A stretch of 32,000 nt of DNA from Candidatus Saccharimonadota bacterium (GTDB lineage: Bacteria > Patescibacteriota > Gracilibacteria > Absconditabacterales > Absconditicoccaceae): contig OZ246420.1 in NCBI GenBank assembly GCA_965231145.1, positions 780,001-812,000 of the forward strand, written 5' to 3'. The notes beneath the pieces were generated by a model. The model worked only from the letters and a program-made list of their open reading frames with translations. It was not told the origin of the DNA and ran no database searches. Below, piece after piece: positions 1-32,000 of the stretch; position 1 is the stretch's first letter; each line of letters opens with the position of its first letter. Both the position numbers and the translations under genes were made by a program.

Positions 1-312
1 CTTGTTGCAGGACTAAACAATGATGTTCTTTCAGCAGAAGAATATGAACAAGCAAGGAACATTGCTATCAGTTATCATATTCCATTTTCGATGGATAATA
101 AAGCAAATGAACACATCCGAGGACAGAAAAAAGTAGTCAGCAAAATCTTTCTTCATAAAATATATCACAAAGACATTATTGCTGCGCTAATGGCAATCTC
201 TTCCCATATAGTGTTTAATGGATGAACTTATCCTCACATGGATCAGTTACCTGCAGGATTGAATGAAAAAGATTCATATGATGTGTGGCGAGGAAAGCTT
301 ATAAACGCATAA
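1..312 (+). CDS. hypothetical protein, C-terminal fragment (start lies upstream of window)
   Basis: Frame 1 is open from the window edge to TAA 310-312. One in-frame TGA (223-225) is read as Gly (..VFNGGTYPH..). No family recognised. Confidence 0.5.
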
Positions 313-357
313 ATAATGTAGTTTTAAGATTTGTATTTTTAGTTTTACGTCGATAAA

Positions 358-2106
358 ATGTTCGTACGAAAATATCTGAAGCCATATTGGAAACTTCTTG
401 CTTTAGTATTGGCTTTAGCCACTATTAACCAAGTATTTTCACTGTTAGATCCTCAAGTAAATCGCTGGTTGCTTGATAATTTTATCCTTAAATATAAGGA
501 ACTCACACAACATGAGTTTGTGAGAGGAATAATGATAGGACTAGGATGACTTATTGGAGTTGCTATGGTTAGCAGAATAGCAAAAAACTTCCAGGATTAT
601 TTTGTCAATGTCATGACGCAAAAGATCGGGATGCAGATCTATCAGGAAACTATTCGCCATGCATTTTCACTTCCTTACTCTGTATTTGAAGATCAGTCAT
701 CAGGACAGCTATTGCAGAAGCTTCTTAAAGCACGTACTGACATAGAGAACTTTATTAAAAATCTCATTAATATTGTATTTGTGACGTTCGTGGTGATGGT
801 CTTTGTCTTGATCTATTCGTATAGTGTTCATTGGGTTATAGGAGCAATTTATACCGCTCTCGTACCTTTAATGGCGTTTACATCTACAGCGCTTTCAAAA
901 CGTATCAAGAAAGCACAGTCAAGCATCGTGAAAGAGTCTGCTTTGTTGGCGGGAACGACAACGGAAGCTATTCGCAATGTATCACTCATCAAGCTCCTAG
1001 GGCTCGAGAAGCAAGAGATGAATAGATTGGAAACTGCAAATACTGGTATACTGGGACTTGAATTGAAAAAGATCAAGATCGTAAGAACGATAGAGTTCCT
1101 CCAAGGAACACTTATCAATGCTATTCGTGTCGGAGTGATGGGAACGATGTTCCGGCTCATCTTTAAAGAGCAGATGACCTATGGTGAGTTCTTAGCCTTA
1201 CTATTCTACAGTTTCTGGATTATCAATGGTATGACGCAGTTTGGTGAGGTTATCAAGACCTACCAGGAAGCAAAAGCAAGTATGGAAACTCTTGATGATA
1301 TCATGCATATGGCGCCAGCGCCAGTACCTGAAAATCCTGAAGCACTCCCTGTCATCAGTTCTATGGCATTTGATCATGTAAGCTTTGGATACAGCGCGGA
1401 AAAAGAAGTACTTCACGATATAGACTGGAACGTACAAGCAGGGAAAACAGTTGCATTTGTTGGTCCATCTGGATCAGGTAAATCAACTATCATCAAGCTT
1501 CTTTGCTGACTCTATCCTGCAACCGCCTGAACAGTACGTATTAATGATGTACATATTAATACATTGGACGCTCACGTATTTGCACAACATCTTGGTATAG
1601 TCACACAGGATACTCAACTCTTCAACGGAACTATCAGAGACAACCTTCTCTTTGTCGCCCCAGATGCGACAGATGAAGATTGTATGAATGTACTGAGATG
1701 AGCTCGTGTTGAAGATATTATCACAAGCAATAAAGAGGGCTTGAATACAAGGATCGGCGAAGGATGACTCAAGCTTTCCGGAGGCCAAAGACAACGTCTC
1801 GCAATTGCCAGAGCGCTCCTACGTAATCCTGATGTATTAATATTTGATGAGGCAACAAGTTCGCTTGATAGTCTGATAGAAGCAGAAATTACTGAGACTA
1901 TAAAAGAGGTATCTCATCATAAGAAAGGACTTATCACCGTTCTTATCGCTCATCGTCTTTCGACAGTAATGCATGCAGATGTAATCTACGTCATGGAAAA
2001 AGGAAAAATTATCGAACAGGGAGGTCATGACGAACTCCTTGGAAACAAAGGTCTCTACTGGGCTCTCTGGAGACAACAGATTGGAGAAGGTGAAGGAGAT
2101 GAATAA
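358..2106 (+). CDS. ABC transporter, fused permease/ATP-binding protein (MsbA / multidrug-exporter type)
   Basis: ATG 358 to TAA 2104-2106 is one frame-1 reading frame joined across TGA at 547, 1507, 1528, 1699 and 1765. It has an N-terminal TM domain, Walker A GPSGSGKST, signature LSGGQRQR, Walker B LIFDEATS and H-loop IAHRL. TGA 1765 sits on the Gly of GEGG-LKLSGGQ. Confidence 0.9.
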
Positions 2107-2120
2107 GAATATTTCATATA

Positions 2121-2152
2121 AAAAAACCGCGGGCAAACCCGGCGGTTTTTTG
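2121..2152. terminator. GC-rich hairpin flanked by an A-tract and a T-tract (bidirectional rho-independent terminator)
   Basis: aaaaaACCGCGGGcaaaCCCGGCGGTtttttt lies between the convergent ABC exporter and the 2168-2485 gene. Confidence 0.75.
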
Positions 2153-2167
2153 TATGAGGCATATTTT

Positions 2168-2485
2168 TTAGGTTCTAATAGGTTTGTAGCCGATCATTAT
2201 ATCATATGTTTTTGCAAGTAACCAAAGCAATAAACATATGGAACCAATTATAATGAGAGCACACCAGGCGCAGATCTGGAGACAAACATCCCTCATAAAG
2301 AACATTAGCAGCAACACACTCAATTGAACAAACCACGTCTTTTTGATGCGTTTCCATAAATCTATCATAGCATAGAAAGGATAGATGATGACACCAACGA
2401 CAAACGTCCCTATCAATAGAATTATTTGTGGCAACACAATAAAGATACCGATAAGTAGAACGAAACAGAAGATAGATATGATCAT
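2168..2485 (-). CDS. small integral membrane protein, hypothetical
   Basis: Intact 105-aa ORF ending in TAA. It is very hydrophobic, with about 3 predicted TM segments. No family recognised. Confidence 0.55.
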   Translation of the reverse strand: MIISIFCFVLLIGIFIVLPQIILLIGTFVVGVIIYPFYAMIDLWKRIKKTWFVQLSVLLLMFFMRDVCLQICAWCALIIIGSICLLLWLLAKTYDIMIGYKPIRT

Positions 2486-2560
2486 AATATTTTTTGTTTT
2501 ATGTGCCCATTCTAATGGAACTCATTGGCAAGACAATACTTTCTTATAGAGCCAATTAGG

Positions 2561-2899
2561 TTAGTTTCCTCCCACATTTTCATACACCTCAAAAATCTTA
2601 TCTCTTTTCACAAAGACTACGTCGAGCCTGATATTTTCTTTTGTTTGATAGTCGCGCATGTAGTGCGCTATTGTCTTATGCACAAAGTAAAGCTTCTTTT
2701 CCGTTACATATCAAAAAAGATCGTCCATACCATCGACGACTTTGACTTCAATAAATACGGTAGTATTTTCATTTTCCATGATAATATCTATCTCTCCTCC
2801 CTGGATAGTATAGTTACTCAGGAGATGCGTGTAGCCTTTCGTACGATAGTATTCAACGACTATTTCTTCTCCTTCGGAGCCTTTTTTACGTTTGTTCAT
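2561..2899 (-). CDS. yraN: YraN-family (UPF0102) endonuclease-like protein
   Basis: The ORF 2711-2899 (MNKRKKGSEGEEIVVEYYRTKGYTHLLSNYTIQGGEIDIIM..FIEVKV) continues through TGA 2711-2713 to TAA 2561-2563. The GxxGE..A..Y...GY.IL..N.....GEIDII.......FVEVK pattern is typical of UPF0102. Confidence 0.75.
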
Positions 2900-2906
2900 T
2901 TCTTCA

Positions 2907-2965
2907 CTTAAAACTTAAATCTCAAACCTTAAAACAGTTTTTAGTTTTCAGATTTGAGTTTTAAG
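2907..2965. repeat. AT-rich imperfect hairpin with 7-nt periodic arms (locus A, truB-yraN spacer)
   Basis: The left arm is CTTAAAA CTTAAAT CTCAAAC CT and the right arm is AGTTTTC AGATTTG AGTTTTA AG. The arms are complementary at 20/23 positions. Confidence 0.7.
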
Positions 2966-2969
2966 ATAA

Positions 2970-3635
2970 TTAGTTAATAGTCCAATAGCCAGTCTCATTC
3001 TTGCTGAAAGTGATAAGATTATCAACTTCTGTCATTTTCCATGGACCGATACTGGTTCTACGAAGTTCGCGAATGACACCTCCCGTACCGAGCTGCTCAC
3101 CAAGCCAATGTGCGATAGAACGAATAAATGTCCCAGATCCTACGTCAAATGACACTTTGACCAATGGCCACGCATAGGAGATGATCTCATAATGATATAT
3201 ATCCATTTCACAATCTACCTTGATTTCTTTACCCGCACGTGCTGACTTATAGAGTCTTTTTCCTGCTACTTTTTTTGCACTGAACGAAGGAATAGGCAGC
3301 ACATATGATGGCACAAGTTTATCCAAATATTGTTTCAATAACACTCCCGTAACATGAGTATGATCGCCTTTAAATTGCTCAATTTGAGCATGATAATCAA
3401 TATCCCGTGTATCCGTCTTCACTGAAAGATCAATGACCGCTTCATATGATTTACCAAGACCTTGATACTCCTCTGCTTTTTTTGTATCTTCATCAGATAC
3501 AAGCACCATAAGACCAGTAGCAAGCGGATCGAGAGTTCCACAGTGTCCTACTTTTTTGTAACCAAAATGTTTTTTTACTTTATGTACGACATCGAAGCTT
3601 GTGATGCCGGTCGGTTTATCTGCAAATATGATCAT
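2970..3635 (-). CDS. truB: tRNA pseudouridine(55) synthase TruB
   Basis: Intact 221-aa ORF with no TGA. It carries the KPxGxTS and GHCGTLDPLATGLMVL catalytic-Asp motif. Confidence 0.9.
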   Translation of the reverse strand: MIIFADKPTGITSFDVVHKVKKHFGYKKVGHCGTLDPLATGLMVLVSDEDTKKAEEYQGLGKSYEAVIDLSVKTDTRDIDYHAQIEQFKGDHTHVTGVLLKQYLDKLVPSYVLPIPSFSAKKVAGKRLYKSARAGKEIKVDCEMDIYHYEIISYAWPLVKVSFDVGSGTFIRSIAHWLGEQLGTGGVIRELRRTSIGPWKMTEVDNLITFSKNETGYWTIN

Positions 3636-3654
3636 CGTTATCCTTTTTCCTTAG

Positions 3655-4146
3655 CTAAAATGTACATACTACTTCCTGAAGCTTACATGTGGCAGCGGCC
3701 ACCGAATAACATGCATGAAAATTTGTATTTTCCGTCGAGGTAATCTGCAACGAAGCGCCGCTATGTACCGTACAACCTACCGCATATGGGATTAATGTGA
3801 TATGAAAGCCTGATGTAGTTACTAGCGCACGGTCTATGAGAATTTCGCGAGAAAAAGGAGCGACAAGCTCCCCGGAACCGTACGTTGCTTGCAGGCTGGT
3901 TCCTGACAAAACGCCAAGCGAGAGATATCAGTATTTCACCCATCATGAAGAAAGATGAACGGAATTAGTCGTCGAAGCCTCTTGTAATGTATTTTGTATT
4001 GATGATGCAAAACGCTCTTTTGTATTTGCAAAACGTATCTTATCAGAAAATCAGCTTCCAAGATTAGTAACCATCGCAAGCACGATTCCTATGATCACAA
4101 TAGTAATCACTATCTCTATCAATGTAAATCATTTATTACGTTTCAT
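3655..4146 (-). CDS. type IV pilin / pseudopilin with prepilin-type N-terminal cleavage-methylation signal
   Basis: ATG at 4146 gives MKRNK-G-FTLIEIVITIVIIGIVLAMV. The -1 Gly of the G|FTLIE site is encoded by TGA 4129-4131. The frame stays open through further TGAs to TAG 3655-3657 (492 nt, 163 aa). The C-terminus contains Cys residues. Confidence 0.85.
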
Positions 4147-4154
4147 CGTATATA

Positions 4155-4250
4155 TATTCTAGATTCTAAATTTTGGATTTTGAATAATCTTTTATTAATG
4201 ATTCCTCCTTGTGTAATTTAGAATTTAGAATTCAACATTTCGAATTAATT
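4155..4250. repeat. AT-rich inverted repeat with 7-nt periodic arms (locus E, pilC-pilin spacer)
   Basis: The left side is TTCTAGA TTCTAAA TTTTGGA TTTTGAA and the right side is AATTTAG AATTTAG AATTCAA CATTTCG AATTAAT. The outer ~17-18 nt are complementary (attctagattctaaatt / aatttagaatttagaat). Confidence 0.6.
4156..4184 (-). promoter_or_regulatory. possible sigma70-like promoter for the pilin gene, implying a very short leader
   Basis: On the minus strand: TTCAAA (4184-4179), 17 nt, TAGAAT (4161-4156). The -10 ends 9 nt before ATG 4146. It lies inside the left arm of hairpin E. Confidence 0.35.
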
Positions 4251-4253
4251 ACG

Positions 4254-5348
4254 TTATGTTGTTTGAACTCCACCGAGAATAGTCGTAATAATACCAAATA
4301 CCGAAAATGCAATAAGCACCACTACTCAACCCACAAGCACAATCATGATAGGCTCCACGACTTTAGAAAGATTATTCAGCATCATCTCAAGATCTTCTTC
4401 ATAGACTTCGATCACATTACCAAGGGCTTCCGGAAGCTTTGCTGTATCCTCACCAACCTTTACTAACAATGCTGCGTTTGCTGGAATAATGTGCGTATAT
4501 GACAAAAATACCTCATGCATCGTTTGCCCGCTTCTTACCTGTGCAATCATGGCATCAAGAAACTCCTCATACGAACCGATGCGCACGATATCTTTGAGCA
4601 TCTGAAATGTCGAAATATAACTCATGCCGGCATATTGCATGATTCTCATATATCTGAAAAACTTTATCAGATAATAATATTTCGTCATCTTTCCAATCAA
4701 CGGAAGCTGCAACAACCTATTAAATCACCATCTTTTTCCTGCTTCACTCGAGAACACTACCGATGCTAAAAAACATACGACACCGAGCACGATAAGGATG
4801 ATCGCAACATTATTTTTCATAAAATCTGAAACCGCCATCATGGCGCGCGTTACCGCTGGCATCTCGATGCCGGGAAACTGCTGCGCGATAGAAAAGATTC
4901 CTGGAAGGATATTGATGAAAAGTACAAAAACCGCGATGATTGCTAAGATAAGCAACAATGCAGGATAGGTCATTGCACTAATGTATTTTGCCTGAAGATT
5001 ACGGAGAAAATGATATTCACGAGAAAGCGATGAAAGTACCTTAACGAGATTTCACGATGCTTCTCCCGATCTTACTATATGTACATCGGACGCATCAAAG
5101 TATTCAGGAAGCCTTGAAAGTGCATATGACAACTGGCGTCATTCTTTGAGCATGGTAGCAATATGTCTTCCAATATATCTTTGTGATGGGCTCTCTCCTC
5201 TCTGAGCGATCGTCTCTGCAGCTGCCAACAATGCTACTCATCCCTGAAGGAGATAAGCTAGCTCTCTAAACAAAAATATCTTATCCTTCGTCCCAAATCC
5301 TGCTTTCTCTCTTGTGGCAAGATAGTGACGAATTACTCTTTCAAACAT
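4254..5348 (-). CDS. pilC: type IV pilus / type II secretion platform protein (PilC/GspF family)
   Basis: ATG 5348 to TAA 4254-4256 (1095 nt, 364 aa). It fuses ORFs 4326-4715 and 4725-4973 with the upstream part across five TGAs. It has two GspF-type repeats and TM segments (..SGQTMHEVFLSY..IIPANAALLVKVGEDTAKLPEAL..). Confidence 0.85.
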
Positions 5349-5357
5349 ACAAACAAA

Positions 5358-5416
5358 CTAAAGACTTAAAACATAAAACTAAAAACAAGTTTTGGTATTA
5401 AGTTTTCAGTTTTAAG
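5358..5416. repeat. AT-rich imperfect hairpin with 7-nt periodic arms (locus B, pilO-like/pilC spacer)
   Basis: The left arm is CTAAAGA CTTAAAA CATAAAA CTAAAAA C and the right arm is GTTTTGG TATTA AGTTTTC AGTTTTA AG. The arms pair with a bulge. Confidence 0.6.
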
Positions 5417-5423
5417 ATAATAG

Positions 5424-6125
5424 TTATTTCATCATATAGCCATTCAGCTCAATCGTCACTGCCTGTCTCTCTTGATATTTAACGATATCATAGTTAACAG
5501 AATTAACAGTATAGAGCATAGGGAACTGAGGACTGAGAGTATTTTCTACATTGTATATAAATGCGAGGAGTCAGTTCTTATCAGCAAACTCTATCGTCAT
5601 CATAATTGGTATCCTTATAAGATTTTCTATCGTTTCCATCGTAGAGATATTTCCAAATGAGATACTTGTCACTACGCCGTTGAGCTGATTGGTAGATGAC
5701 TTGAGAAGATATTCGTTAATATTTGCGAGGATCTTCTTCTGGTCAAATGCCATCTTATCTCCTTCATTTTTCTGGAGCTGCAAAAATGCTCTCATCTGGG
5801 GTATCACTGGAACAAGTGTTTCAGGGATAGCGGTACATCCTTTTGTACTTAAGCAAGTGAGCAGTTCAGCTTTCTGCGTATTGATATCTTTAATAGCAAG
5901 AAGATCATTGACGACTTCTTTATACTCACGATCTTTTTGCATCTGCTGCGTCTGAAGCAGATCAACACTACGACTTGTCGCTTCATACTCTGCTGCAGTA
6001 TCCTGCATATATCCTCGGCTTAGTGCCATCACCAGAACAAGCACTATCACATAGAGCTTATATTTAATGGTCAGAACTACTCTCTGAGAGTCTTTTTCCA
6101 GATGATTATTTACTACCTGTTCCAT
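5424..6125 (-). CDS. PilO-like pilus assembly protein (TM anchor + coiled coil + C-terminal globular domain)
   Basis: ORF 5571-6125 continues through TGA 5571-5573 to TAA 5424-5426 (233 aa). The assignment rests on architecture and position between pilN-like and pilC, not on a recognised motif. Confidence 0.45.
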
Positions 6126-6654
6126 GGAGAGATATATCAGCAGTTAAAGTAAATGCAAAAACTTCACCATTTTTCTTATAGTCTTGGATCGCGACGTTCC
6201 TAATAAAGTCTAATTGTACAAACTGATCTATCACTCCATCCTTTGCATAAATATATGAAAGATTTGGTACTGTTCCTCTCAGACTTATCCCATCATAGTC
6301 GATCTTAAAATCAGAAAACTGTACGTTTCCTCCTCCAAGACTTTGAAGTGTTGTGAAGATCTGGATCACACGAGAGATACGATCGAGCCATGAACCAGCA
6401 TTTTGCGAGGCAACCAGTTTCTTACCTGCAAGATAGGTCATATAATCACTTGTATCATGAGCCTTCTGGATCTCTGCATTTTTTCCTGCTATATCTTCCT
6501 GCAGATTTTTCTGCTCTCCTACCATCACCTGGTTCATCGCAGCGTTGTAGCCCCAATATCCCACATACAGAATAAATACGAGCAGCACAAAAACATATAC
6601 TCTTTTCCACGGCAGACGCATTTTTTTTGCATCCGACATTATACTATTGGTCAT
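6106..6654 (-). CDS. PilN-like fimbrial assembly protein
   Basis: Intact 182-aa ORF. Its N-terminus KKMRLPWKR followed by a TM helix resembles the INLLPWR motif of PilN. A coiled coil follows. It overlaps the next gene by 20 nt. Confidence 0.5.
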   Translation of the reverse strand: MTNSIMSDAKKMRLPWKRVYVFVLLVFILYVGYWGYNAAMNQVMVGEQKNLQEDIAGKNAEIQKAHDTSDYMTYLAGKKLVASQNAGSWLDRISRVIQIFTTLQSLGGGNVQFSDFKIDYDGISLRGTVPNLSYIYAKDGVIDQFVQLDFIRNVAIQDYKKNGEVFAFTLTADISLHGTGSK

Positions 6655-6756
6655 AGAAAACGCTTATATCTAAAAATAAGTTATCACCCTTTTGGTATAG
6701 CGTTTTATCAGATGATTGCAAATAGAAAGCTCTTTACAAAACTCTTTTTATAAAAA

Positions 6757-6794
6757 GAAAAAACTCTCCTGGGGAGAGTTTCTGCCTTCGGCAG
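6757..6794 (-). terminator. tandem hairpin terminator downstream of yebC
   Basis: The minus strand reads CTGCCgaaGGCAG then AAACTCTCCccaGGAGAGTTTtttcttttt. One stem carries a UUCG-type loop, and a U-tract follows. Confidence 0.7.
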
Positions 6795-6809
6795 ATTATT
6801 TGATATGAA

Positions 6810-7562
6810 TTATGCAACGTTATGATAAATGCTATCGACATCTTCGTCTTCTTCGAGGGCATTGTAGAGTTCTTCAAAGGATTTCATGTCTTCGTCTGAA
6901 AGTGTGATTTCATTTTGTGGCAGATAGTGAATATCTGCATCTGCAAGACTATATCATAATTCCTCTATCCCCTTCTTCGTATTTACAAATGCTTCGTACG
7001 AAGTTATCACGCGACACTGCCCGGCTTCTTCCTGAAAGTCTTCGATATCAAGATTCATCAGATCCTCTTCTAATTGGTCTTTATCATAGGGAATAATCGT
7101 CTTTATCTCATTACCTTTTACGGTTTCTGTTTTAAGTTTTCCGTTAATGATGATCACCCCCTTTTGCGAAAATTGCCATGCGACTGCTCCTGGCTCTGCC
7201 CATGTACCACCCATTTTTCCTAAGATAGCGCGAACATTTGATGCGGTTCTATTGGTGTTTGAAGCGATACATTTAATATAAAGCGCAGATCCCGCAGGGC
7301 CATACCCTTCATACATAACTTCCTGAAGTTCCTGGCCTTCTACCTTTCCTGCTCCTTTCTTGAGCGCCTTATCTATGACTTCTTTTGGCAGACTATGGTA
7401 TCTTGCTTTTTGCAAAATAAGATCGAGTGCTGGGTTCATATGAGGATCGTCTCCTCACTTTCTGGCAGCCATCTCGATGAGCTTACCGATCCTTGAATAC
7501 GTTTTCGACTTTGCTGCATCACCTGCTGCCTTCTTTCCTGCAATACTATGTCGTCTTCACAT
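6810..7562 (-). CDS. yebC: YebC/PmpR-family DNA-binding transcriptional regulator
   Basis: ATG 7562 to TAA 6810-6812 (250 aa). The sequence MGRRHSIAGKKAAGDAAKSKTYSRIGKLIEMAARKGGDDPHMNPALDLILQKAR matches the family N-terminus. TGAs occur at 7557, 7455 (the Gly of GGDP) and 6954. Confidence 0.9.
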
Positions 7563-7591
7563 ATTTTACATACACATATTTCATAAAATGG

Positions 7592-7656
7592 CAGTTAGAT
7601 GTTAGAGTTTAGATGTTAGTAAAACTTGCCAAAATCTAAAATCTATAATCTAATTG
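7592..7656. repeat. hairpin with 7-nt periodic arms (locus D, rnpB-yebC spacer)
   Basis: The left arm is CAGTTAGATGTTAGAGTTTAGATGTTAG and the right arm is CCAAAATCTAAAATCTATAATCTAATTG. About 22/28 positions are complementary. The unit is TTAGAxx / xxTCTAA. Confidence 0.7.
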
Positions 7657-7680
7657 CTGTAAGAATATTAGTTAATAAGT

Positions 7681-8019
7681 GCTCTACCATAAGCCCGATT
7701 CTGTATTACGATGATATTTATCTTTGATAGCCTATAGCTACCTTTGTGCACGCCCCCGACAGCTGTCGGGGGACGCTTGCAACAAGCAGGGTTTACCACT
7801 CGAATGACAAAGTTGTCAGACTAAGAAGGAGTATCCCGACAGCTGTCGGGAACCTCCACGTTGCATCTTTCCTCAGCACGAGGCTAAGTAGTTTTCGTTT
7901 CTGTGGCACTTTCCTTTGCTCCGTATTCCGGACGTTCCATCAGCTGTTAGCTGCTGCCTTGTGTCTGTTGTCGAGACTTTCCTCCCCCGACAAAGTCGGG
8001 GGCATCACCATGGTAGAAC
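7681..8019 (-). ncRNA. rnpB: RNase P RNA (bacterial)
   Basis: This is a GC-rich island in AT-rich DNA. The minus strand contains CR-I GGGGGAGGAAAGUCUCG, GGAAAGUGCCACAGAAACGAAAAC, GGUAAACCC and CR-V ACAGAAUCGGGCUUAUGG. The 5' GUUCUACCAU pairs with the 3' AUGGUAGAGC to form P1. ORF 7746-8030 is an artefact inside it. Confidence 0.88.
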
Positions 8020-8056
8020 GCCGTAAATAGTATGAAAAACGGCCGACATTTTCAAG

Positions 8057-8084
8057 TTGAAAGCAGGAGTTGAATATATATAAT
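8057..8084 (+). promoter_or_regulatory. putative sigma70-like promoter upstream of secG
   Basis: TTGAAA (8057-8062), 16 nt, TATAAT (8079-8084). Confidence 0.45.
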
Positions 8085-8101
8085 GAAAGTCCTTTTTATA
8101 T

Positions 8102-8341
8102 ATGATACGAATCGATATGAAAACAGTGTTAATCGCGCTTATGTTCCTTGCTGGTATAATTTTTGTAATTTCAGTTATGCTGATGAGCCCGAAAGGAGGA
8201 CTCGGACTTGGTATTGGAGGTGTGAGCAGCAGCAATGAGTACGGAAGCAAGAAGTCTATCGAGTCAACGTTGAAAAAAGTTGCACTCGTCACTGGTATCA
8301 TTTTCGCCGCTATTGTATTGTACCTGCCTTACGCCAACTAA
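8102..8341 (+). CDS. secG: preprotein translocase subunit SecG
   Basis: The 79-aa ORF has two TM helices flanking a Gly-rich loop (SPKGGLGLGIGGVSSSNEYG). The true start may be the second ATG at 8117. Confidence 0.8.
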   Translation: MIRIDMKTVLIALMFLAGIIFVISVMLMSPKGGLGLGIGGVSSSNEYGSKKSIESTLKKVALVTGIIFAAIVLYLPYAN

Positions 8342-8378
8342 TGGCATTGGCATGGAGTTTATCCGCTTCCTGTAAAAG

Positions 8379-10310: not shown

Positions 10311-10323
10311 TAGACATAGATTC

Positions 10324-11842: not shown

Positions 11843-11849
11843 ATGTTCC

Positions 11850-20037: not shown

Positions 20038-20039
20038 AG

Positions 20040-22993: not shown

Positions 22994-23230
22994 ATGACCT
23001 ATAATTCCGGAATGTATGAACAATTTAATCCCTACAGCACGAATACTACTCCTTCATATGTTAGAACAGGATTGTCTCAGGATCCTTATATTTTGCTTTT
23101 AGACATTAGTGATCCCATCTCTTCACCAGACAACCAAACTTGAGGAGTTATAATCACAACTTCAGCTGCCATTGCAACTAATCTCTCAGATGAAGCGAAA
23201 ATGGTGAATGACTTGATAAATGCTGCTTAG
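22994..23230 (+). CDS. small hypothetical protein
   Basis: ATG 22994 to TAG 23228-23230 (78 aa) with one TGA. It is not in the standard-code track. Its 3' end overlaps the sufC stop by 4 nt (convergent). The only support is an open frame. Confidence 0.3.
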
Positions 23231-23973
23231 TTCCCAAATCCGTTTTCCTTAATCATATGTGCAATTGATAAGTCACCCTCCTGGGTGATTTTTCAATTTT
23301 CAAGGACATAGACGTGGTCCACTGGGATATAATCAAGTACTGAAAAATAATGAGTAATGATGATGAAAGTATTATCTTTATTGTTTATTTCTTGCATCAG
23401 AGATGCGACGCTGCGAAAAGCATCCACATCAAGTCCGCTATCCACTTCATCAAGAAAAATATACTTTGGCTGCAGAAGGCGTAACTGAAGGATCTCGATC
23501 TTTCTTCTTTCTCCCCCACTAAAGCCGACATTGAGGTCACGCCGGAGAAATTCACGATCAATCTTTAATTCACCAATAAGCGGTTCTACTATCTTCTTAA
23601 ATGCGAGAAAAGTAACTTGCTCCCCCACTTTTGACGAGTAAATAGTACGCAAAAACTCAAAAAGCTTTACTCCTTTTACCTCCGGGATAGTCTGAAACGC
23701 AAGGAAAATTCATAGCTTTGCTCTCTCGTGGGGACCCATACTTAATAGGTTATACTTCTCCTCGCTTCCTCATTTCCTCGTTTCCTCAATATGAATAGAT
23801 CAATTCGTAATTAAATATTTCGGATGTCCCATCACCGTCAGCGCAAGTGACGACTTTCCTGAGCCATTTTTCCCCAGTAAGCAGTAATTTTTACCAAGTT
23901 CAAAACTCATACTAATCCCTTTGAGTATCTCTTTTTCCTCTACCGTCACGTGGAGGTTTTCTATATGTAGCAT
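23227..23973 (-). CDS. sufC: Fe-S cluster assembly ATPase SufC
   Basis: ATG 23973 to TAA 23227-23229 (248 aa). Motifs include LHIENLHV, Walker A GKNGSGKSSL, ERAKLGIFLAFQ (Gly is TGA), FSGGERRK and Walker B IFLDEVDSGLD. Confidence 0.88.
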
Positions 23974-24451: not shown

Positions 24452-24480
24452 AATGCGCCTCTATATTGGCGCATTTTTTT
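24452..24480 (+). terminator. rho-independent terminator
   Basis: AATGCGCC tctatatt GGCGCATT ttttt. It abuts the stop codon of the convergent OLD-like gene. Confidence 0.75.
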
Positions 24481-26407
24481 ATGAAAATATATGCCCAAAA
24501 ATAGTTTCTATTTCTTCTCTCTTTGAAGCGAACTTCGGATCATGGATCCACGCTGAGAAGGTACGATGATAGAACTCTATAGTTTCTTCCATCCCTTTTT
24601 CTTCAAGTCACATATATGTTTCGATGTCTCCTTGCTTCAAAAGAAATATATCTTCTTCATAGAGATCATCGATAAAGGTAATAATATCCTCCCATTGCCC
24701 AGGATTTTTTGCTTGAATGAGCTGAATAAGCGTCGGATATCTTTTTGTCTTGGGAATTCATTCTATGCTCTTCCTATAGACACTCATATCTATCTTCACA
24801 CCAGTATCTTGGATATTATCCCAGTCTCAAATAAAGTAACTTTGTAAACCAAATTTATCAAGAAATTTTTTTCGTCTTTTAAATGATCCCTTACCATTGA
24901 TATTCACTATTTCGTAATTCGTAATCTTTTTTGCCCGTTCCGGAAAGTGTTCGATAAGATATGAAAGATAATAACCAAAAAAGAGTTCGTCGATCTCGCC
25001 TTCCACCATGATGATTTTATTCACAAAGAAGATCTTTGCTGTATTGGTGAAACGAAGTATCTGAACAAGGTTTGCTTCCTGTTCATGATATCCATGAAGC
25101 GGTGCAACCACATGAGTTTGATGATTCTTCTGAAAAAATCTATGCACGTACTGTATATTATTCTCATTGATCAGAAGAGATGAGTGAGTTGCAACAACAC
25201 ATTGAAGCTGAAGTTCCTTTCCTACTGTTTCTAAAAGCGATAAGAGTTTCTTCTGAAGCTGTGGATGAAGATGGAGTTCTGGTTCATCAACGACGATAAG
25301 TCCATTTTGCAAATCAAATCCATACATAGCAGTCACTAGAAAGATAATTGCTTTATCTCCTGATGACACATCGTCAAACTCATAACGATGTCCAGCATCG
25401 TCTTCAAGAAAGAATGTATATCTCGTCGTATCGTGTTCTTTTCTATAGAGTTTAAAGTAAAATCCTATATAACTATGAAGAATTTTATTGATAGAAACAT
25501 ATTCAGGAACATTTTGTAGTACCATGTTACATGGTTTATCTGCATCCGGACAAAGCGTATGATATGCTTTTGCAAGTTTTTTCTTCAGCATTTCAAAACC
25601 CAATGGCATATTTGCATGAGAGAAAAAGTCTTTATCTTCTTCAACCGTCTGAAGCACATCACTTCCATGGCGGAAATGTAAATCATAATGACTATCAAGA
25701 TGTCCTAGATGTCTGAAACATCCTATAATAGCAAATGTATTATTGAGATGGCGGACCCTTTCTGATGGATCTTTGATGATGAATGTATTAAAAATTGTAA
25801 TAAGATGCTGAATCGCTTCAAAGTGTTTCATATATGCAAAGAAAAGCTGTCCAATAGGATCTTCATCAAGACATCTCGTTGAAACCACGCCTGTCTTCGT
25901 ATGAATGTCACAGTGTAAATGAAGACTATCACGTTTCATGATCTCATCCACCGAAAGTGATCCATCGAAACGAACAAGTAACTGTGAATATGTTCAGAGC
26001 ATCTCATTAATCTCCTGTGCATGTTTTACGATAAACACAGCATTTTCGCGATCGAGCGAAGAAAGATAGAGTCCAATATGGATACTACTTGGTTTATCAG
26101 CAGTATCATTGTGAGGATTGAGTGCGATAACGGGATGAGGAAGAGCAACAATAGATTTATCATAACTCGCAGTCTCTTGATTTGCTATATACTGATCATG
26201 AAGAGCATAACGATCAAGCATCCCCACGCGAAACATATAATTAACAATGGTGAGAAAATTACTCTTACCAGAGCCATTTGGGCCAATAAGGATATTTGTG
26301 TGTGCATCTATTACTTCGATAGGAAATATAATTCATGTGTTTTTCCCCAGATCCTTCACATAAGGGAAACTTAAAAGATTTGAGATTTTTATCGTATGTA
26401 TCTTCAT
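24479..26407 (-). CDS. ABC-type ATPase fused to a TOPRIM nuclease domain (OLD-family / PARIS AriA-AriB-like), candidate anti-phage defence protein
   Basis: ATG 26407 is preceded by GGAGAG 5 nt upstream, and the frame runs to TAA 24479-24481 (642 aa). It fuses four standard-code fragments across TGA 26333, 25994, 24827, 24758 and 24608. Motifs are Walker A GPNGSGKSN, Walker B LIVVDEPELHLHP, H-loop VATHSS, TOPRIM Glu IIMVEGEIDELFF and DxD FIGDWDN. Confidence 0.75.
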
Positions 26408-26443
26408 ATCACTCTCCTCTAGAGGATAAAAAATATTTCGCTC

Positions 26444-26471
26444 ATCATACCGAAACCATATCGAAATGCAA
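26444..26471 (-). promoter_or_regulatory. putative promoter of the OLD-like gene
   Basis: On the minus strand: TTGCAT (26471-26466), 16 nt, TATGAT (26449-26444). It lies downstream of the histone-like gene terminator. Confidence 0.4.
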
Positions 26472-26484
26472 AATACATCTATAC

Positions 26485-26523
26485 AAAAAATGAGCAACAA
26501 TCCGAAGATCATCACTCATTTTT
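26485..26523 (-). terminator. strand-specific rho-independent terminator of the histone-like gene
   Basis: The minus RNA reads AAUGAGUGAUGAUC uucg GAUUGUUGCUCAUU uuuuug. It forms a 14-bp stem in which four pairs are G.U, and on the + strand those positions are C-A mismatches. Confidence 0.7.
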
Positions 26524-26786: not shown

Positions 26787-27524
26787 TTAGAAAATATTTT
26801 TCATCATTCGTCATGAAATTATTGCCGCAGTTTCTGTTCTTAAAATATTTTCTCACAAAGAAATTTTTTCTACACCCATCTCATCAAACATTTTTTCTTC
26901 GTCCGCATGTCGTCAGCCCTCAGGTCATACCAGCATAATCACACCATTTCCATTTTGAATTTTGAATTCTAAATGTTGAATTATTTCTCAGTGTTGGTGT
27001 GCGATGAAGATTTTTTTTCATTCACACATAGAAAGAATATTTTTTGAAAATGTCATGTCAATTTTATTTCGTCATCGTGATTGTTCAACTGCTTCGAGTG
27101 AAATTTTTTTTAAACGTTCCATTTTCGTTTCAGAAATTTCTTTCACGACAGAATGTTTTGCAGGAAAAAATATCAGATGATCTATTCCAATCTCTGTACA
27201 CTTCTGCACGATAAGTTCAAGCTTCTCAAATTTATTGGGCATAGCCACTGCTAGGTATATAGCGCTATTTTCTATCTCTCTTTCTTCACTTGTCAAAACA
27301 GCAGCCGTAATAGAATGTTTTGTTATTTCCAAAATAGCACAGATCACTCTTATAGGATGAGATGGTGTTGAGTTTTCAGCTTTGAGTTTTGAGTTGGGTC
27401 GCTGAAAAGCGACCTGATCTCCTTTTTTTGCACGAAGCACTTTTGAAAGTTGCGAAACAACTCTCTCTTCATGGATAATGATTGTATTTCCTTCCTGAGT
27501 ATATGGTGTAACAAAAAGCTGCAT
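26787..27524 (-). CDS. rsmE: 16S rRNA (uracil1498-N3)-methyltransferase RsmE
   Basis: ORF 27072-27524 continues through TGA 27072 and further TGAs to TAA 26787-26789 (245 aa). C-terminal motifs are IMLVGPEGGRHADEE and SLGENILRTETAAII. Confidence 0.85.
26951..26984. repeat. single heptad-repeat arm embedded in the rsmE coding sequence (F)
   Basis: CATTTTG AATTTTG AATTCTA AATGTTG AATT. Its reverse complement matches the right arm of locus E (4228-4250) at about 20/23 positions. It encodes ..EIIQHLEFKIQNG.. Confidence 0.55.
27371..27393. repeat. single heptad-repeat arm embedded in the rsmE coding sequence (G)
   Basis: AGTTTTCAGCTTTGAGTTTTGAG is identical at 21/23 positions to the right arm of locus A (2943-2965, AGTTTTCAGATTTGAGTTTTAAG). 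It encodes ..NSKLKAENS.. Confidence 0.65.
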
Positions 27525-27550: not shown

Positions 27551-28096
27551 TTACACTACCTGATCATAGATATCTGGATGCGTATTTTTCAATTTGTGTA
27601 AACGTTGCTGCCATCATTTCTTCACTTTCATCCGAGCTTTCGCTTTCTCGATAAGATCGCTCTTTTGCAGTTTTTTGATAAATGCTGGTTGCTCTTCATA
27701 GGTATATAGTTTGAGCTTTCCTAGGCTCTCATATCTCTTTAGCGCCTTATAGATATCTTTTATATAACGTTGTTTAACAATTGCTACTGGCTTTTCAGTT
27801 ACCAGTTCTTCACTTCGCGTCGTCATTCATTCCTTAAAAGAAGTAGCTGAAAGTGTATAGAGGTATCATGCTTGATTTTTATAGTAATGCTCAATGGCTC
27901 ATGGCCACCTTTCTACAACAATAAACTGTCACTTATATCTTTGTCGCAAAAAATCGAGATCACTTGCCTTTGGGATAAATGAAATAGCAACTTCCGGATG
28001 AAGGACCGCATAGACATATTTTTTACCATGCGTAGAAACCTTAGGAACCAGCTTCCTCAATTCTCCTGTAAGAGAACCATGGTACACATATTTCAT
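27551..28096 (-). CDS. hypothetical protein (181 aa)
   Basis: ATG 28096 to TAA 27551-27553. It fuses ORF 27614-27826 with upstream and downstream parts across five TGAs. The N-terminus is MKYVYHGSLTGELRKLVP...HGKKYVYAV. The C-terminal half is Lys-rich and helical. Confidence 0.6.
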
Positions 28097-28216
28097 GACC
28101 TTATAGCATTATCTCAAATAAAACACCTACACGCACATTATGGAAGAAGTGAAGGATAATACAGATCCATATGTTATTAGTCTTATAATAAATAGAGAGT
28201 GTATTTATAGATGAGT

Positions 28217-29383
28217 TTACTTTTTCAACACGAACGTTCCCACAAAATGCGCCCCTTTGCTCATATCGCGTCACTCTGGCATCCAGTCATATCTTTTGTT
28301 CGGCTGATGTACGACTTCTCTTTCACCGTTATCATACAAAACAAGCTGCATATCTAAGTATTGTGCATTATTTCTTACTTTACTACCACCGTGGCCATGT
28401 CAGCTCAATTCACTATCTGGAGAAGCTGTAGTATAGCCATCTTCATAAAAGTTTTCATAGGAATCTGCCGTACGTTTAACTCATGGCCCATAATCTCCAA
28501 TAGCGAAATGTAACAATATCTCTCCCGTTGTTACCTCCTGCTCTGGCACAATGGTTATATATCATACTCATCCTCCATGAGAATGAACATTTTTCAAAAT
28601 CTCATTATATATTCACATAAGCGGCGCGGCTATATCTTTATTTTCAATATATCATGAAATAATGGGATCTTCAGAAAGATATTTTACTCGTTTATAGGTA
28701 AGTTCTCACCATGCTTCAGCATCTTTTACCTCAAAGCCATAATCAAAGTCTCTCTTCACTATAAAATTTTCTTTTAACGGCAACAGCATGCTTCCTACGA
28801 AATGAACCCCTTGAGACATATCTATTTCTTGTGGTTCCCACTTATACTCGTTCAATGCGTTATGCAATAGAAATGGTTGACCATTATTATACATCATAAG
28901 ATGCATTTCTAATCACTCAGCAAGTCCCTGAATAATTCCTCATCCAATCCCATAGGTTCCTTCTATACGATCTCTCTCAAATCTTTCTTTTCAATCTTCT
29001 CACCCCAAAAAATTTTTCTCTAAAGAAAATCCTCTTTCCATAGGCATCCCTTTACCAAAATCTCCTTCTACAATATGCAATATATCTTTCCCTGTAAGTG
29101 GCTCTCTTTCTCGTTCAAATGATATATAACCTCTTCCACCTCAGTGAAATCTGATATTTTTCAATATCTCTACCACAAAACTTACCAACATTACGTAAGA
29201 CACCTCCATATCATAACTTTCATGTATCTTTTTGCACTCTATCTTAATCACCTCTCTTATCTGTTTATAAACATCTTCCTCATTTTTTTCTTTTTGCAAA
29301 AAATCTACCTCTATGTGAAATGGCTCTATAGGAAGTTTTTTCCCATTGTCTTCGTTTTCGAATCTGGGTTTATTGATCATCAA
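28217..29383 (-). CDS. hypothetical protein with an internal tandem duplication, Gly-rich (388 aa)
   Basis: ATG 29383 to TAA 28217-28219 (1167 nt). It fuses ORFs 29141-29383 and 28706-28906 with unlisted parts across 13 in-frame TGAs. Two modules share EILKN(I/V)..HGGG.GYI...E..TG.ILH...GD(F/Y)G.G ... (Y)(N/D)NG ... DMS.G.HFVG. Confidence 0.65.
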
Positions 29384-29440: not shown

Positions 29441-30184
29441 TTAAAACAGTTCGTCCTCCTTCTCTTCAGACGCATTATCATGCGTCCCTGCATCTTGCGA
29501 TACAGGCTCAACTCTTCGGTCAATAGGAGTGAGACCTTGCTTCTCAAGGTACTCATTTGCTTTGCTGAAATGCTGACAACCGAAGAAACCAGAATGCACC
29601 GAAAAAGGCGATGGATGCGGAGCTTCCAGCACTAAGTGTTTTGATGTATCGATGAGCACCTTCTTCCCTCTGGCAAAATTTCCCCAGAGCATAAAGACAA
29701 CATGCTCCTTTTCTTGGCTTATGTGTCTAATGACTGCGTCAGTAAATTGTTGCCAGCCAAGTTGCTGATGAGATGCTGGTGTGTTTGCACGCACTGTCAG
29801 GATTGCATTGAGCAGCAACACTCACTGCTCTGCCCGATAGGTCAGATCACCGCTTGTGGGAATAGAAATTCATAGATCCTCATGGATCTCTTTATACATA
29901 TTTTTCAGCGATGGCGGTGGCGTTACTCACTTCGGTACGCTAAATGATAAACCCATCGCCTGACCAGGTCCGTGATACGGATCCTGTCAGAGAATCACGA
30001 CTTTCACGCGATCGAAGGGCGTGGTATTGAGAGCGTTGAAAATAAGCGGTGCGGGAGGGAAAATAGTATATTGTTTTTTTTCTTCAAGAAGTTTATTTTT
30101 GATCTCACCAAAATAAGCTTGGGAAAACTCCCCTTCCAGCACTTTTTTCCACGATGCTTCTATCTGCACGTCACTCATGACCAT
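29441..30184 (-). CDS. ung: uracil-DNA glycosylase (family 1)
   Basis: ORFs 29987-30184 and 29441-29821 are joined across TGAs (247 aa). Motifs include [22 protein letters not shown] (the Gly of GQDPYH is TGA 29987-29989), HPSPFS and GFFGCQHFSKAN. It has an acidic C-terminal tail. Confidence 0.92.
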
Positions 30185-30192
30185 AAATTAGG

Positions 30193-30819
30193 TTATAAAT
30201 TGATTACTTTGAGAATGCGATCAAAAACCTCCTCTACAGTTCACTTTGCATCGATGTTGATCCGCTTATTTCCCCGGATAGCAAGCTTTGATGATCTCCT
30301 ATATCACTCTGTCACTTTTTCAAAAAATTCTACTCCCATCTGTTCAAATTTATCACCATCAGCATCAAACGTTCTATCGAGTGCATGTTTCACCTCCGAA
30401 TCAAGGTATACTACCTTATCGGGCAACAGATCGCTGATAGCTGCATGGTTAATTGCGAGGACTTTATCAAGTCCAAGACCTCTTGCCCGCCCCTGATACG
30501 CCAATGATGAGACAAATGATCTGTCAGCTATTACTATGCCTCCGGCGTCGACCGTTGGTTTAATGAGCGTCTTCAACAGCTGCGCGCGAGCTGCAGCATA
30601 CAGATACGCTTCACAGATAGGATCCATAAGCTCATCAAATTGTGTTGCCTGTGCAAGTTTTCTAATTGCTTCTGCGATACCAGTTGATCCTGGTTCACGC
30701 ACATGGATGATCTTTTTCTCAGGATATTTCTGCAGCAAATACTCATACAGCCTTGCTGACTGCGTCGATTTTCCTGAACCAACTATTCATTCAAACACAA
30801 TGTACATAGACGAACTCAT
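30193..30819 (-). CDS. tmk: thymidylate kinase
   Basis: ATG 30819 (or 30807) to TAA 30193-30195 (208 aa). The P-loop is YIVFEGIVGSGKSTQ, with the Gly of FEG encoded by TGA 30787-30789. It also has DRSFVSSLAYQG. Confidence 0.9.
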
Positions 30820-30843
30820 AGTCAATGAATAAAGAATAGCGCC

Positions 30844-31437
30844 TTATTGTTTTTCTGTTTCATACTTCATCCTTTTCTGGAGATAGCATCTACCACAAAC
30901 TGACTGATAGGTAATACGAACATCGCTACCATCGATCTGCACCTGTTCGCCGCTAAAGACTGGGATGCTATCAATGCTTCTTATATTACAAATAGCTTTT
31001 TTGCCACACTCACAGATGGTTTTCATTTCTTCAAGCTCATGCGCAATTTCTAGAAGTCTTGTACTTCCCGGAAAACCTTCCATTTGAAAATCAGTGCGCA
31101 GCCCATAGCAGATGACTGGTATGTTATCTATCGACGCTAAGCGAAAAAGCTGGTCAACTTGTTTCTTTGTGCAAAACTGCGCTTCATCCACAAGTATGCA
31201 ATAGACGAGTGGCTGCTGCGAAACCACTTCTACGAGGTCATCCTCTTCCGAAAATACGACATCCACTTTTCTTTGGATACCAAGTCTTGAAACGAGCATA
31301 TCTTCTCCTTTCGTATCTTTACCTGGTTTCATCACTAAGACCCTCATATTTCTTTCTTCATAATTGTGGGCTACCTGCAAAAGAGCCGTCGATTTTCCAG
31401 CATTCATCGCACTATAACGGAAATACAGCTTCGCCAT
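30844..31437 (-). CDS. tdk: thymidine kinase
   Basis: Intact 197-aa ORF with no TGA. It has the P-loop MNAGKST, VDEAQF and the zinc ribbon CECG...CGRC. Confidence 0.93.
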   Translation of the reverse strand: MAKLYFRYSAMNAGKSTALLQVAHNYEERNMRVLVMKPGKDTKGEDMLVSRLGIQRKVDVVFSEEDDLVEVVSQQPLVYCILVDEAQFCTKKQVDQLFRLASIDNIPVICYGLRTDFQMEGFPGSTRLLEIAHELEEMKTICECGKKAICNIRSIDSIPVFSGEQVQIDGSDVRITYQSVCGRCYLQKRMKYETEKQ

Positions 31438-31566
31438 TTCTTCTTAACTCCTAAGACGGTAAAAGGATATTACAGCCAGCTTAGAGATCCTGGCTTTTAT
31501 TTCAATTGGAGCTTTATAAAACTATTTCCTACACTTTTTGGCTTATTTCTAAGGCAATTCAAAATA

Positions 31567-31594
31567 TTGACTTCACATGGCGTTCTGTTATAAT
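31567..31594 (+). promoter_or_regulatory. putative sigma70-like promoter with extended -10
   Basis: TTGACT (31567-72), 16 nt, TGtTATAAT (31586-94). It lies 30 nt upstream of ATG 31625. Confidence 0.55.
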
Positions 31595-31624
31595 ACTCAT
31601 TCACATTAAAATATATATCTATTT

Positions 31625-32000
31625 ATGAAATCGTTATTTATCATTGCCATCGTTCTTTGTATCACAGGACTCAGTTACACTCCTGCCCACGCACAAATAC
31701 GCTGCAAAGACAAAGGGAAAAAATTAGTCGTCTTTATTCACAAAGACGGTACATCTGACACCCTGTGTCTGCTTGCAAGCGACATCATTACGGACACAAT
31801 AAAGTATTCCCAACGCGAAATAAATATGGGAGAAAACGCATACAACTATAACCCGAGATTCATAAATATGATTCTCGACAGTTCAGATAACGACAACCAT
31901 ATTATCGTATTTTCTAAATACGCTTATGCAAAACAAGACCATAGATCGACGCCTTTCGATATAAGCATGGAACAACAGTCGTTAGCTCATAACACCTGGG
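31625..32000 (+). CDS. secreted hypothetical protein, N-terminal fragment (continues past window end)
   Basis: ATG 31625 begins MKSLFIIAIVLCITGLSYTPAHA|QIRC.., a signal peptide. The frame is open to the window edge. Confidence 0.6.
   Translation, partial: MKSLFIIAIVLCITGLSYTPAHAQIRCKDKGKKLVVFIHKDGTSDTLCLLASDIITDTIKYSQREINMGENAYNYNPRFINMILDSSDNDNHIIVFSKYAYAKQDHRSTPFDISMEQQSLAHNTW

Follow-up and report, generated by a model that had tools for sequence, protein, structure and literature searches.

Evidence that UGA encodes glycine and CGA/CGG encode tryptophan in a 32-kb stretch of a probable Absconditabacterales chromosome

Translation table 25, the Candidate Division SR1 and Gracilibacteria code in which UGA encodes glycine (Gly), was reportedly described by Campbell et al. 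2013 and Rinke et al. 2013. Proteomics confirmed the glycine meaning of UGA in the sister group BD1-5 (Hanke et al. 2014, PMC4032931). Shulgina and Eddy predicted in 2021 that, beyond UGA = Gly, both CGA and CGG were reassigned from arginine (Arg) to tryptophan (Trp) in Absconditabacteria, and reported CGG alone for some Gracilibacteria (PMC8629427); the code with UGA as Gly and CGA/CGG as Trp was restated for Absconditabacterales in 2026 (PMC13092985). In the literature searched, we found no proteomic confirmation of CGA/CGG as Trp. Reassignments of CGG to Trp are also on record for Anaerococcus and for the RFN20 clade of Bacilli, named Onthovivens in PMC13092985 (PMC8629427, PMC13092985). 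Here we analyze a 32-kb stretch of DNA (contig OZ246420.1, positions 780,001 to 812,000; hereafter the window) with a guanine-plus-cytosine (GC) content of 38%, for which an initial annotation had proposed table 25 with UGA as a glycine sense codon throughout. We find that the window is very probably part of an Absconditabacterales (SR1-type, Candidate Phyla Radiation (CPR)) chromosome in which UGA encodes Gly, CGA and CGG encode Trp, and UAA and UAG are the sole stops. The phenomenon is already known, UGA = Gly since 2013 and CGA/CGG = Trp since 2021, and the genome is public; what is added here is a correction, that table 25 is insufficient, together with a caveat on public annotation, and no new question is opened.

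Under the standard code (table 11), the longest open reading frame (ORF) of the window has 388 amino acids (aa). When TAA and TAG are taken as the sole stops, long ORFs tile the window, and we modelled 30 non-overlapping genes comprising 8,921 codons (26,853 nt, 84% of the window). These genes contain 112 in-frame TGAs, or 12.6 per 1000 codons, spread over 26 of the 30 genes; TruB, g06, DUF488, and Tdk have none, and a few of the 112 may precede the true start, such as that at residue 13 of g14. With the number of pieces per gene taken as the TGA count plus one, the earlier statement that the standard code breaks most genes into 2-5 pieces holds for 14 genes but is too low for 11 genes with 6-8 pieces and for g27, which falls into 14 pieces at 13 TGAs. 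Pfam matches at E ≤ 0.001 were obtained for 19 of the 30 genes, three of them (DUF1653, SBP_bac_5, and the IS200-like Y1_Tnp) borderline to Pfam's own score cut-off. The ABC_tran, T2SSF, LGT, UDG, Thymidylate_kin, YebC, SUFBD, and RsmE domains run across TGAs uninterrupted, the GatB_N domain matches positions 2-276 of its 277-position model while crossing five TGAs, and the gatB model TIGR00133 is matched across TGAs from 4 to 481 of its 481 positions. Because the Pfam and NCBIfam models align uninterrupted across them, the TGAs are read through.

The alternative that UGA is a stop as in the standard code, with the broken genes explained as pseudogenes, sequencing or assembly errors, selenocysteine, or programmed read-through, could point to the table 11 ORF lists, which hold many ORFs of 100-388 aa, and to a public annotation of this DNA (L085) in which such fragments were called as genes. 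It is nevertheless exceedingly unlikely, as the 112 TGAs are distributed without frameshifts, fall at Gly-specific positions, and are crossed by domain and full-length family models. The DNA was, moreover, assembled identically from three sequencing runs (contigs L084-L086, 100% identity; L084 is identical to window positions 1-13635 and L085 to positions 1-10535), so the TGAs are not assembly errors. A frequency of 12.6 TGAs per 1000 codons is also far above the expectation for selenocysteine use or occasional programmed read-through, a judgement from general knowledge with no search run for selenocysteine insertion sequence (SECIS) elements. The relaxed stop set also yields false ORFs. A 187-aa TGA-spanning ORF at 7738-8301 (minus strand) is spurious and was discarded, since the RNase P RNA gene overlaps it.

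The modelled genes end in TAA (27) or TAG (3), in line with the initial annotation, which had seen no need for TGA as a stop; this is partly built in by the construction of the models. Homologues agree with two of these ends: the C-terminus of GatB is fixed by an alignment that reaches the last residues of solved GatB, and the RsmE residues past its last TGA are conserved among relatives, which supports its stop. A first RsmE model with an upstream start overlapping g26 was dropped, and the MQLFV start common to relatives was adopted.

We aligned nine proteins of the window (GatB, Ung, Tmk, YebC, SufC, Lgt, the ABC exporter, RsmE, and SerRS) with solved structures, all from standard-code organisms. 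About 36 TGA sites are alignable to solved homologues, about 22 of which are Gly in most or all chains and none of which is Trp. The Gly-majority sites include every motif named in the initial annotation. Writing X for the TGA residue, its TGAs lie exactly where it had placed them in CPVCTXQPXALP of GatB (10541-10543 and 10550-10552), ILXQDPYH of Ung (29987-29989, minus strand), GEGXLKLSGGQ of the ABC exporter (1765-1767), the P-loop FEXIVGSGKS of Tmk (30787-30789, minus strand), KXGDDP of YebC (7455-7457, minus strand), and, as the -1 residue, the prepilin cleavage site K-X-FTLIE (4129-4131, minus strand); NRAX (10853-10855) and EKX (10979-10981) of GatB and ERAKLXIFLAFQ of SufC (23710-23712, minus strand) were recovered as well. 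Gly occupies X391 and X470 of the ABC exporter in four of four P-glycoprotein half-transporters, the YebC site at 7455 in four of four and that at 6954 in three of four solved homologues, and three SufC sites in all three solved SufC-type proteins, the fourth SufC TGA lying within an insertion. Three of the five Lgt sites face Gly of E. coli Lgt, both the FEG P-loop and the IEGY motif of Tmk have Gly at the TGAs in the S. aureus Tmk alignment, and the GPEGG and SLG motifs of RsmE have Gly at theirs. At X384 of the ABC exporter, in the LxRFYD motif of ABCB-type exporters, the P-glycoprotein half-transporters carry Arg and 17 of 22 other bacterial ABC ATPases carry Gly, and the two SerRS sites face A/V/V and T/T/T in solved homologues, both being variable positions.

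Larger homologue panels give the same assignment. The GatB panel comprises 80 genes from GTDB genomes (Cyanobacteria, Firmicutes, Actinobacteria, Verrucomicrobia, and others), all standard-code; the scan for GatB loci returned solely such bacteria because tblastn penalises TGA-broken hits, and we reused the panel as an independent standard-code set. Gly stands at the six GatB TGA columns in 80, 80, 80, 80, 77-78, and 50 of the 80 homologues, and none of these sites lies opposite Trp. Among 111 Ung homologues, mainly from Bacteroidota, Gly is present at the four TGA columns in 108, 101, 95, and 105, and the few W entries are ascribed to recoded relatives that had been translated with TGA = W. 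A simple per-codon likelihood tally covering GatB and Ung in full assigns Gly to TGA, with Trp as the runner-up 56.6 nats below, and returns the standard meaning for all well-sampled codons. Profile scores agree: Gly at TGA scores 542.7 bits against 518.5 for Trp in GatB (NF004012), 332.0 against 316.2 in Ung (NF003589) and 114.6 against 98.5 in RsmE (TIGR00046), the latter two with CGA/CGG read as Arg, and 155.0 against 140.9 in Lgt (TIGR00544), corresponding to gains of 24, 16, 16, and 14 bits, respectively.

The table 4 (Mycoplasma-type) reading, in which UGA encodes Trp, shares the premise that UGA clearly has a sense meaning. One relative's Logan-derived protein (P0001) has W at seven of seven TGAs, and Trp would reach 2.0% of residues, which is high yet possible. 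The probability of this reading is nonetheless close to nil, since standard-code homologues show no enrichment of Trp at any TGA column, a Trp reading costs 14-24 bits per gene in the profile scores, the likelihood tally favours Gly, and TGA is never paired with TGG in orthologues (0 pairs, against 33 with GGN). The comparison of Trp with Gly at the TGA columns of homologues, which the initial annotation had proposed, thus favours Gly and rejects Trp.

The orthologue pairs come from codon-level comparison with relatives, namely the GatB loci L081-L083, a 21-kb syntenic locus of GCA_030429145.1 (L087), whose orthologues are 45-82% identical to the window genes (57-82% for eight of nine), and L088. 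The 62 aligned window TGAs face GGN 33 times, TGA 20 times, and TGG not once; in the reverse direction, 37 GGN codons of the window face TGA in relatives (Fisher p = 4e-56 for the TGA-Gly pairing versus non-Gly codons). Reading TGA as Gly raises the Gly content from 5.5% with GGN alone to 6.8%, compared with 7.3% in the 80 GatB homologues, and TGA makes up 112 of the 604 Gly codons (18.5%). The four lines of evidence, i.e., solved structures, homologue panels, profile scores, and the codons of relatives, are independent of each other, and at the level of sequence comparison they confirm UGA as a glycine sense codon in the window.

The window contains 25 CGA and 14 CGG codons, along with 67 TGG, 168 AGA, 71 CGT, 45 CGC, and 23 AGG. 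In Ung, the column of CGG117 (GDLTY-x-AEQG) is Trp in 107 of 111 homologues and that of CGA223 (PID-x) in 110 of 111, and human UNG has Trp at both positions. In Lgt, CGA31 and CGA91 face Trp of E. coli Lgt, and among 93 distant representatives (from 150 representatives, 50% clustering) the CGA91 column has W in 67 and R in 16, compared with R in 89 of 90 and 95 of 95 at the Arg control columns AGA68 and CGC141. Within the recoded clade, the Lgt columns of TGG13 (WYG motif) and CGA91 are mixed in the translated proteins (R 84 and W 33; W 58 and R 54), whereas columns with AGA, AGG, or CGC have R in 115-120 of 120 and no W; the "R" entries at the TGG and CGA columns are the standard translation of the CGA/CGG codons of relatives. 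For GatB, which has neither codon in the window, a TGG common to the window and L081 is matched by CGA in L082 and L083, at a position where 71 of 80 standard-code homologues have Trp, and at a second column (Trp in 76 of 80) L082 has CGA and L081 TGG. Elsewhere, SerRS CGG167 faces Phe in three of three solved SerRS and is TGG in L087, SufC CGG144 is TGG in L087, RsmE CGA205 faces Phe in three of four solved homologues, Tmk CGG111 faces Tyr in S. aureus Tmk, and relatives carry TGG or CGA at four of the five RsmE CGA sites.

The codon pairs separate CGA/CGG from the other arginine codons. The 25 aligned CGA/CGG codons of the window are partnered by TGG in 11 cases, by CGA/CGG in 12, and by AGA/AGG/CGT/CGC in none; the 31 aligned TGG codons face TGG 15 times, CGA/CGG 10 times, and AGA/AGG/CGT/CGC once; and the 151 aligned AGA/AGG/CGT/CGC codons face one another 119 times, TGG once, and CGA/CGG never (Fisher p = 4e-15 for CGA/CGG versus the other Arg codons). 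Orthologous codons are available for 18 CGA/CGG sites of the window, and at 17 of these they are solely TGG, CGA, or CGG, the exception being RsmE residue 152, a variable site. A residual Arg meaning of CGA was considered for RsmE residues 150 and 152 and set aside, residue 150 being TGG in L088 and residue 152 being variable. Reading CGA/CGG as Trp raises the profile scores of Ung by 13 bits (to 345.2), of RsmE by 3 bits (to 117.5), and of Lgt with NF000775 by 6 bits, and increases the Trp content from 0.75% with TGG alone to 1.19%.

Plain table 25, with UGA as Gly and all other codons standard, so that CGA and CGG remain Arg, would accommodate all the UGA evidence equally well. NCBI translates relatives in this way, the proteins P0003 and P0090 matching the table 11 reading at every non-TGA codon, and the Lgt profile TIGR00544 is indifferent (155.0 bits with Arg, 154.8 with Trp). 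With the near-invariant Trp at the two Ung columns, the Trp majority at Lgt CGA91 beside true Arg columns, and the absence of any other Arg codon among the partners of the 25 aligned codons, we regard it as very improbable. From these comparisons we conclude that CGA and CGG are Trp codons in the window and that the code is that of Absconditabacterales, beyond plain table 25. The table 25 assignment of the initial annotation is thus upheld for UGA as Gly and for the UAA/UAG stops, and fails in leaving the other 63 codons standard, since CGA/CGG behave as Trp in both the alignment columns and the interchange with TGG.

Several points weigh against the combined assignment of UGA to Gly and CGA/CGG to Trp. 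About a third of the alignable TGA sites fall on variable non-Gly columns (A/V and T in SerRS, the Arg of LxRFYD in the ABC exporter, E and Q in Lgt), so Gly at every TGA is not demonstrable site by site; such columns are, however, expected for any codon. The CGA/CGG evidence draws on about 20 alignable sites. Among these is RsmE CGA152, for which relatives have AAA or ATA and which could be placed opposite the conserved Arg of the EQ(S/C)GR motif, as plain table 25 would have it. An ambiguous or mixed decoding would also be compatible with these data. In addition, neither the window nor the 2.7 kb past its left end (L084) holds a tRNA or release-factor gene; ARAGORN found no tRNA gene in the window or in L081-L086, and solely tRNA-Leu(GAG) in L087 and L088. 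As no such gene is present, we infer the decoding machinery from the literature on the lineage. A tRNA(UCA) with the glycine identity elements G1:C72, C2:G71, G3:C70, and U73 would decode UGA, release factor 2 (prfB) would have been lost, and release factor 1 would terminate at both UAA and UAG. For CGA and CGG, the decoding tRNAs would be tRNA(UCG) and tRNA(CCG) bearing the identity elements of tryptophan, with G73 and no A20; tRNA-Arg(GCG) would read CGU and CGC, and AGA and AGG would carry most of the arginine.

The closest named homologues agree with the lineage call of the initial annotation (SR1/Absconditabacteria/Gracilibacteria). The best named GatB matches are from Candidatus Absconditabacteria/Absconditabacterales (51-55% identity), SR1, and one Gracilibacteria (50%), and the Lgt matches include Absconditabacterales, Absconditicoccaceae, and SR1; overall, the closest named GatB and Lgt homologues stand at 42-55% identity and closer relatives at 70-81%. 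The code favours Absconditabacterales within this range, because the double CGA and CGG reassignment is reported for Absconditabacteria. The window contains no 16S or ribosomal-protein marker, and an exact GatB 37-mer had no match among the GTDB representative genomes. An origin of the window from a recoded phage or another mobile element, and not from a cellular chromosome, might be considered, as some phages use alternative stop-codon meanings and as Ung, Tmk, Tdk, the OLD-family nuclease, and the IS200-like/REP-associated transposase homologue also occur in phages. We give this explanation next to no weight: the window holds the housekeeping genes GatB, SerRS, TruB, RsmE, Lgt, SufBC, SecG, YebC, and RNase P RNA, its exact TGA-free proteins are on record on a 1,107,293-bp NCBI contig, and its gene order recurs on a 936-kb contig from a relative.

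A further, tentative and on balance unlikely reading is that the window captures an unusually advanced stage of the takeover of CGA/CGG by Trp on a deep, poorly sampled branch. It is suggested by the share of CGA/CGG among Trp codons (39 of 106, 37%) and by a CGG frequency about twice the ceiling reported for most Absconditabacteria. CGA and CGG occur 28 and 16 times per 10,000 codons, counted here over all codons and in the published figures over Pfam-aligned codons, and the 32 kb of the window are too little to establish genome-wide usage. A clue to the depth of the branch is that GatB is 55% identical to its nearest named relative. If this reading is true, comparison with the syntenic GCA_030429145.1 could give a codon-by-codon record of a reassigned sense codon spreading after its capture, and would show that table 25 annotations of such metagenome-assembled genomes put Arg in place of invariant Trp.

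The annotation of the contig hinges on the code. Table 11 shatters 26 of the 30 genes, and the warning of the initial annotation that standard-code annotation would be wrong is borne out by the public calls of the same DNA, which disagree on the code: they are fragmented on L085 (YebC 161 aa, ABC exporter 314 aa), and genes run through TGAs on L084. Table 4, which at least one public pipeline applied to a relative (P0001, the L083 GatB, for which the Logan protein has Trp at all seven TGAs and NCBI proteins have Gly), would place Trp at about 110 glycine positions. Table 25 would place Arg at 39 tryptophan codons, including those of the near-invariant Ung Trp and the conserved Lgt Trp; the NCBI protein P0090 (L082 GatB) already has four CGA read as Arg, two of them on the GatB columns described above, with Trp in 71 and 76 of 80 homologues. 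No exact match was returned for Tdk or for GatB, Ung, Tmk, YebC, SufC, and SerRS translated with either Gly or Trp, and the exact proteins on public record are TruB, g06, and DUF488 alone, all TGA-free. The window also adds independent, non-profile evidence, in the form of codon substitution between syntenic relatives, for a reassignment so far computationally predicted.

The features are listed in Table 1; the families named in the window also include DUF1653, a DUF6174/SLH protein, DUF488, a Holliday-resolvase-like nuclease, and an alpha/beta hydrolase. Positions 3655-6654 (minus strand) form a type IV pilus-like cluster consisting of the prepilin, PilC/T2SSF, and two small membrane-anchored proteins without a family match, in keeping with Vampirococcus and other CPR epibionts, whose pilus repertoire is described as rich (PMC8080830). 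SecG adjoins the RNase P RNA gene and escaped the ORF cut-off of 120 aa. The scores of the transposase homologue fall under the curated cut-offs of both Pfam and NCBIfam, and with 4 TGA and 2 CGA it is adapted to the host code. The OLD-family ATPase + TOPRIM architecture is that of Gabija GajA and other defence nucleases; as no helicase partner adjoins it and its position between SufC and RsmE is kept in L087, it looks like a stable chromosomal gene more than a mobile defence island. In L087, Tdk, Ung, and RsmE are directly adjacent, whereas the window has Tmk between Tdk and Ung and two family-less genes, g26 and g27 (27551-29380, minus strand), between Ung and RsmE. The g27 protein, which has the highest TGA density of the window, looks like two internal repeats (HxGGxGY ... 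MSxGxHFVG twice). Outside its own clade, Ung is nearest to Bacteroidota enzymes (Saprospiraceae, Chitinophagaceae, Phaeodactylibacter) at 62-68% identity, a likeness far above the 36-43% identity of GatB to any standard-code bacterium; it may stem from an old horizontal transfer, the gene having been recoded since then and carrying 4 TGA and 2 CGA/CGG.

Table 1. Features of the window, with the basis of each assignment and the codons of interest.
Feature	Position	Strand	Basis	Product and codons
ABC exporter (ABC_membrane + ABC_tran)	358-2106	+	Pfam	582 aa; 5 TGA (547, 1507, 1528, 1699, 1765); 2 CGA/CGG (367, 1153)
NERD/UPF0102 (YraN-like) endonuclease	2561-2899	-	Gene call and Pfam families on identical Logan contig L084	112 aa; 1 TGA (2711-2713)
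TruB	2970-3635	-	Pfam; exact protein in public collection	221 aa; 0 TGA; 1 CGG (3405-3407)
Prepilin-type protein	3655-4146	-	N_methyl motif, residues 1-26	163 aa; 4 TGA
PilC/T2SSF platform protein	4254-5348	-	Pfam T2SSF, two stretches	364 aa; 5 TGA
YebC/TACO1 family protein	6810-7562	-	Pfam	250 aa; 3 TGA (7557, 7455, 6954); 1 CGA
Class A RNase P RNA (bacterial)	7675-8021	-	Full-length model match, 109 bits	
SecG	8102-8341	+	Pfam PF03840 on public gene call of identical contig L085	79 aa
Solute-binding-protein-like gene (SBP_bac_5)	8379-10310	+	Pfam	643 aa; 4 TGA; 1 CGA
GatB	10409-11842	+	Pfam, NCBIfam, PDB alignment	477 aa; 6 TGA (10541, 10550, 10853, 10979, 11021, 11420); 0 CGA/CGG
Lineage-specific secreted protein	11987-13654	-	No family match	555 aa; 7 TGA
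SufB/D-like protein	13733-14398	-	Pfam SUFBD_core	221 aa; 3 TGA
Seryl-tRNA synthetase (SerRS)	17122-18393	+	Pfam	423 aa; 2 TGA (17548, 17836); 1 CGG (17620)
IS200-like/REP-associated tyrosine transposase homologue	20092-20709	+	Y1_Tnp 23.2 bits; REP_Tyr_transpos 43.1 bits (cut-off 80)	4 TGA; 2 CGA
Lgt	22102-22920	+	Pfam LGT, E. coli Lgt alignment	272 aa; 5 TGA; 4 CGA/CGG (22192, 22330, 22372, 22915)
SufC	23227-23973	-	PDB alignment	248 aa; 4 TGA; 1 CGG
OLD-family ATPase + TOPRIM protein	24479-26512	-	Pfam AAA_21, AAA_15, OLD-like_TOPRIM	677 aa; 5 TGA; 4 CGA/CGG
RsmE 16S rRNA methyltransferase	26787-27524	-	Pfam, PDB alignment	245 aa; 7 TGA; 5 CGA
g27, two-repeat protein	28217-29380	-	No family match	387 aa; 13 TGA; 2 CGA
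Uracil-DNA glycosylase (Ung)	29441-30184	-	UDG Pfam, NF003589	247 aa; 4 TGA (29987, 29927, 29870, 29822); CGG 29834-29836; CGA 29516-29518
Thymidylate kinase (Tmk)	30193-30819	-	Pfam	208 aa; 3 TGA (30787, 30304, 30241); 3 CGG
Thymidine kinase (Tdk)	30844-31437	-	Pfam TK	197 aa; 0 TGA

Compared with the Absconditabacteria code (Shulgina & Eddy 2021, eLife, PMC8629427), the window has all three reassignments, AGA as the dominant Arg codon (168 of the 307 Arg codons other than CGA/CGG), rare CGA/CGG, and a low GC content; it differs in that CGA/CGG already make up 39 of the 106 Trp codons, a share that suggests a fairly advanced rebound. With table 25 it shares UGA as Gly, the UAA/UAG stops, and the lineage, but table 25 keeps CGA/CGG as Arg and those of the window behave as Trp. 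Table 4 of Mycoplasma/Spiroplasma and several insect endosymbionts likewise has UGA as a sense codon, and the bacteria are again small, AT-rich, and host-dependent; however, UGA encodes Trp there and Gly in the window, where the extra Trp codons are CGA/CGG. In the case of Anaerococcus and the RFN20 Bacilli clade, an arginine CGN codon was also captured by tryptophan in a low-GC genome, but there CGA stays Arg and UGA stays a stop, whereas in the window CGA, CGG, and UGA change together.

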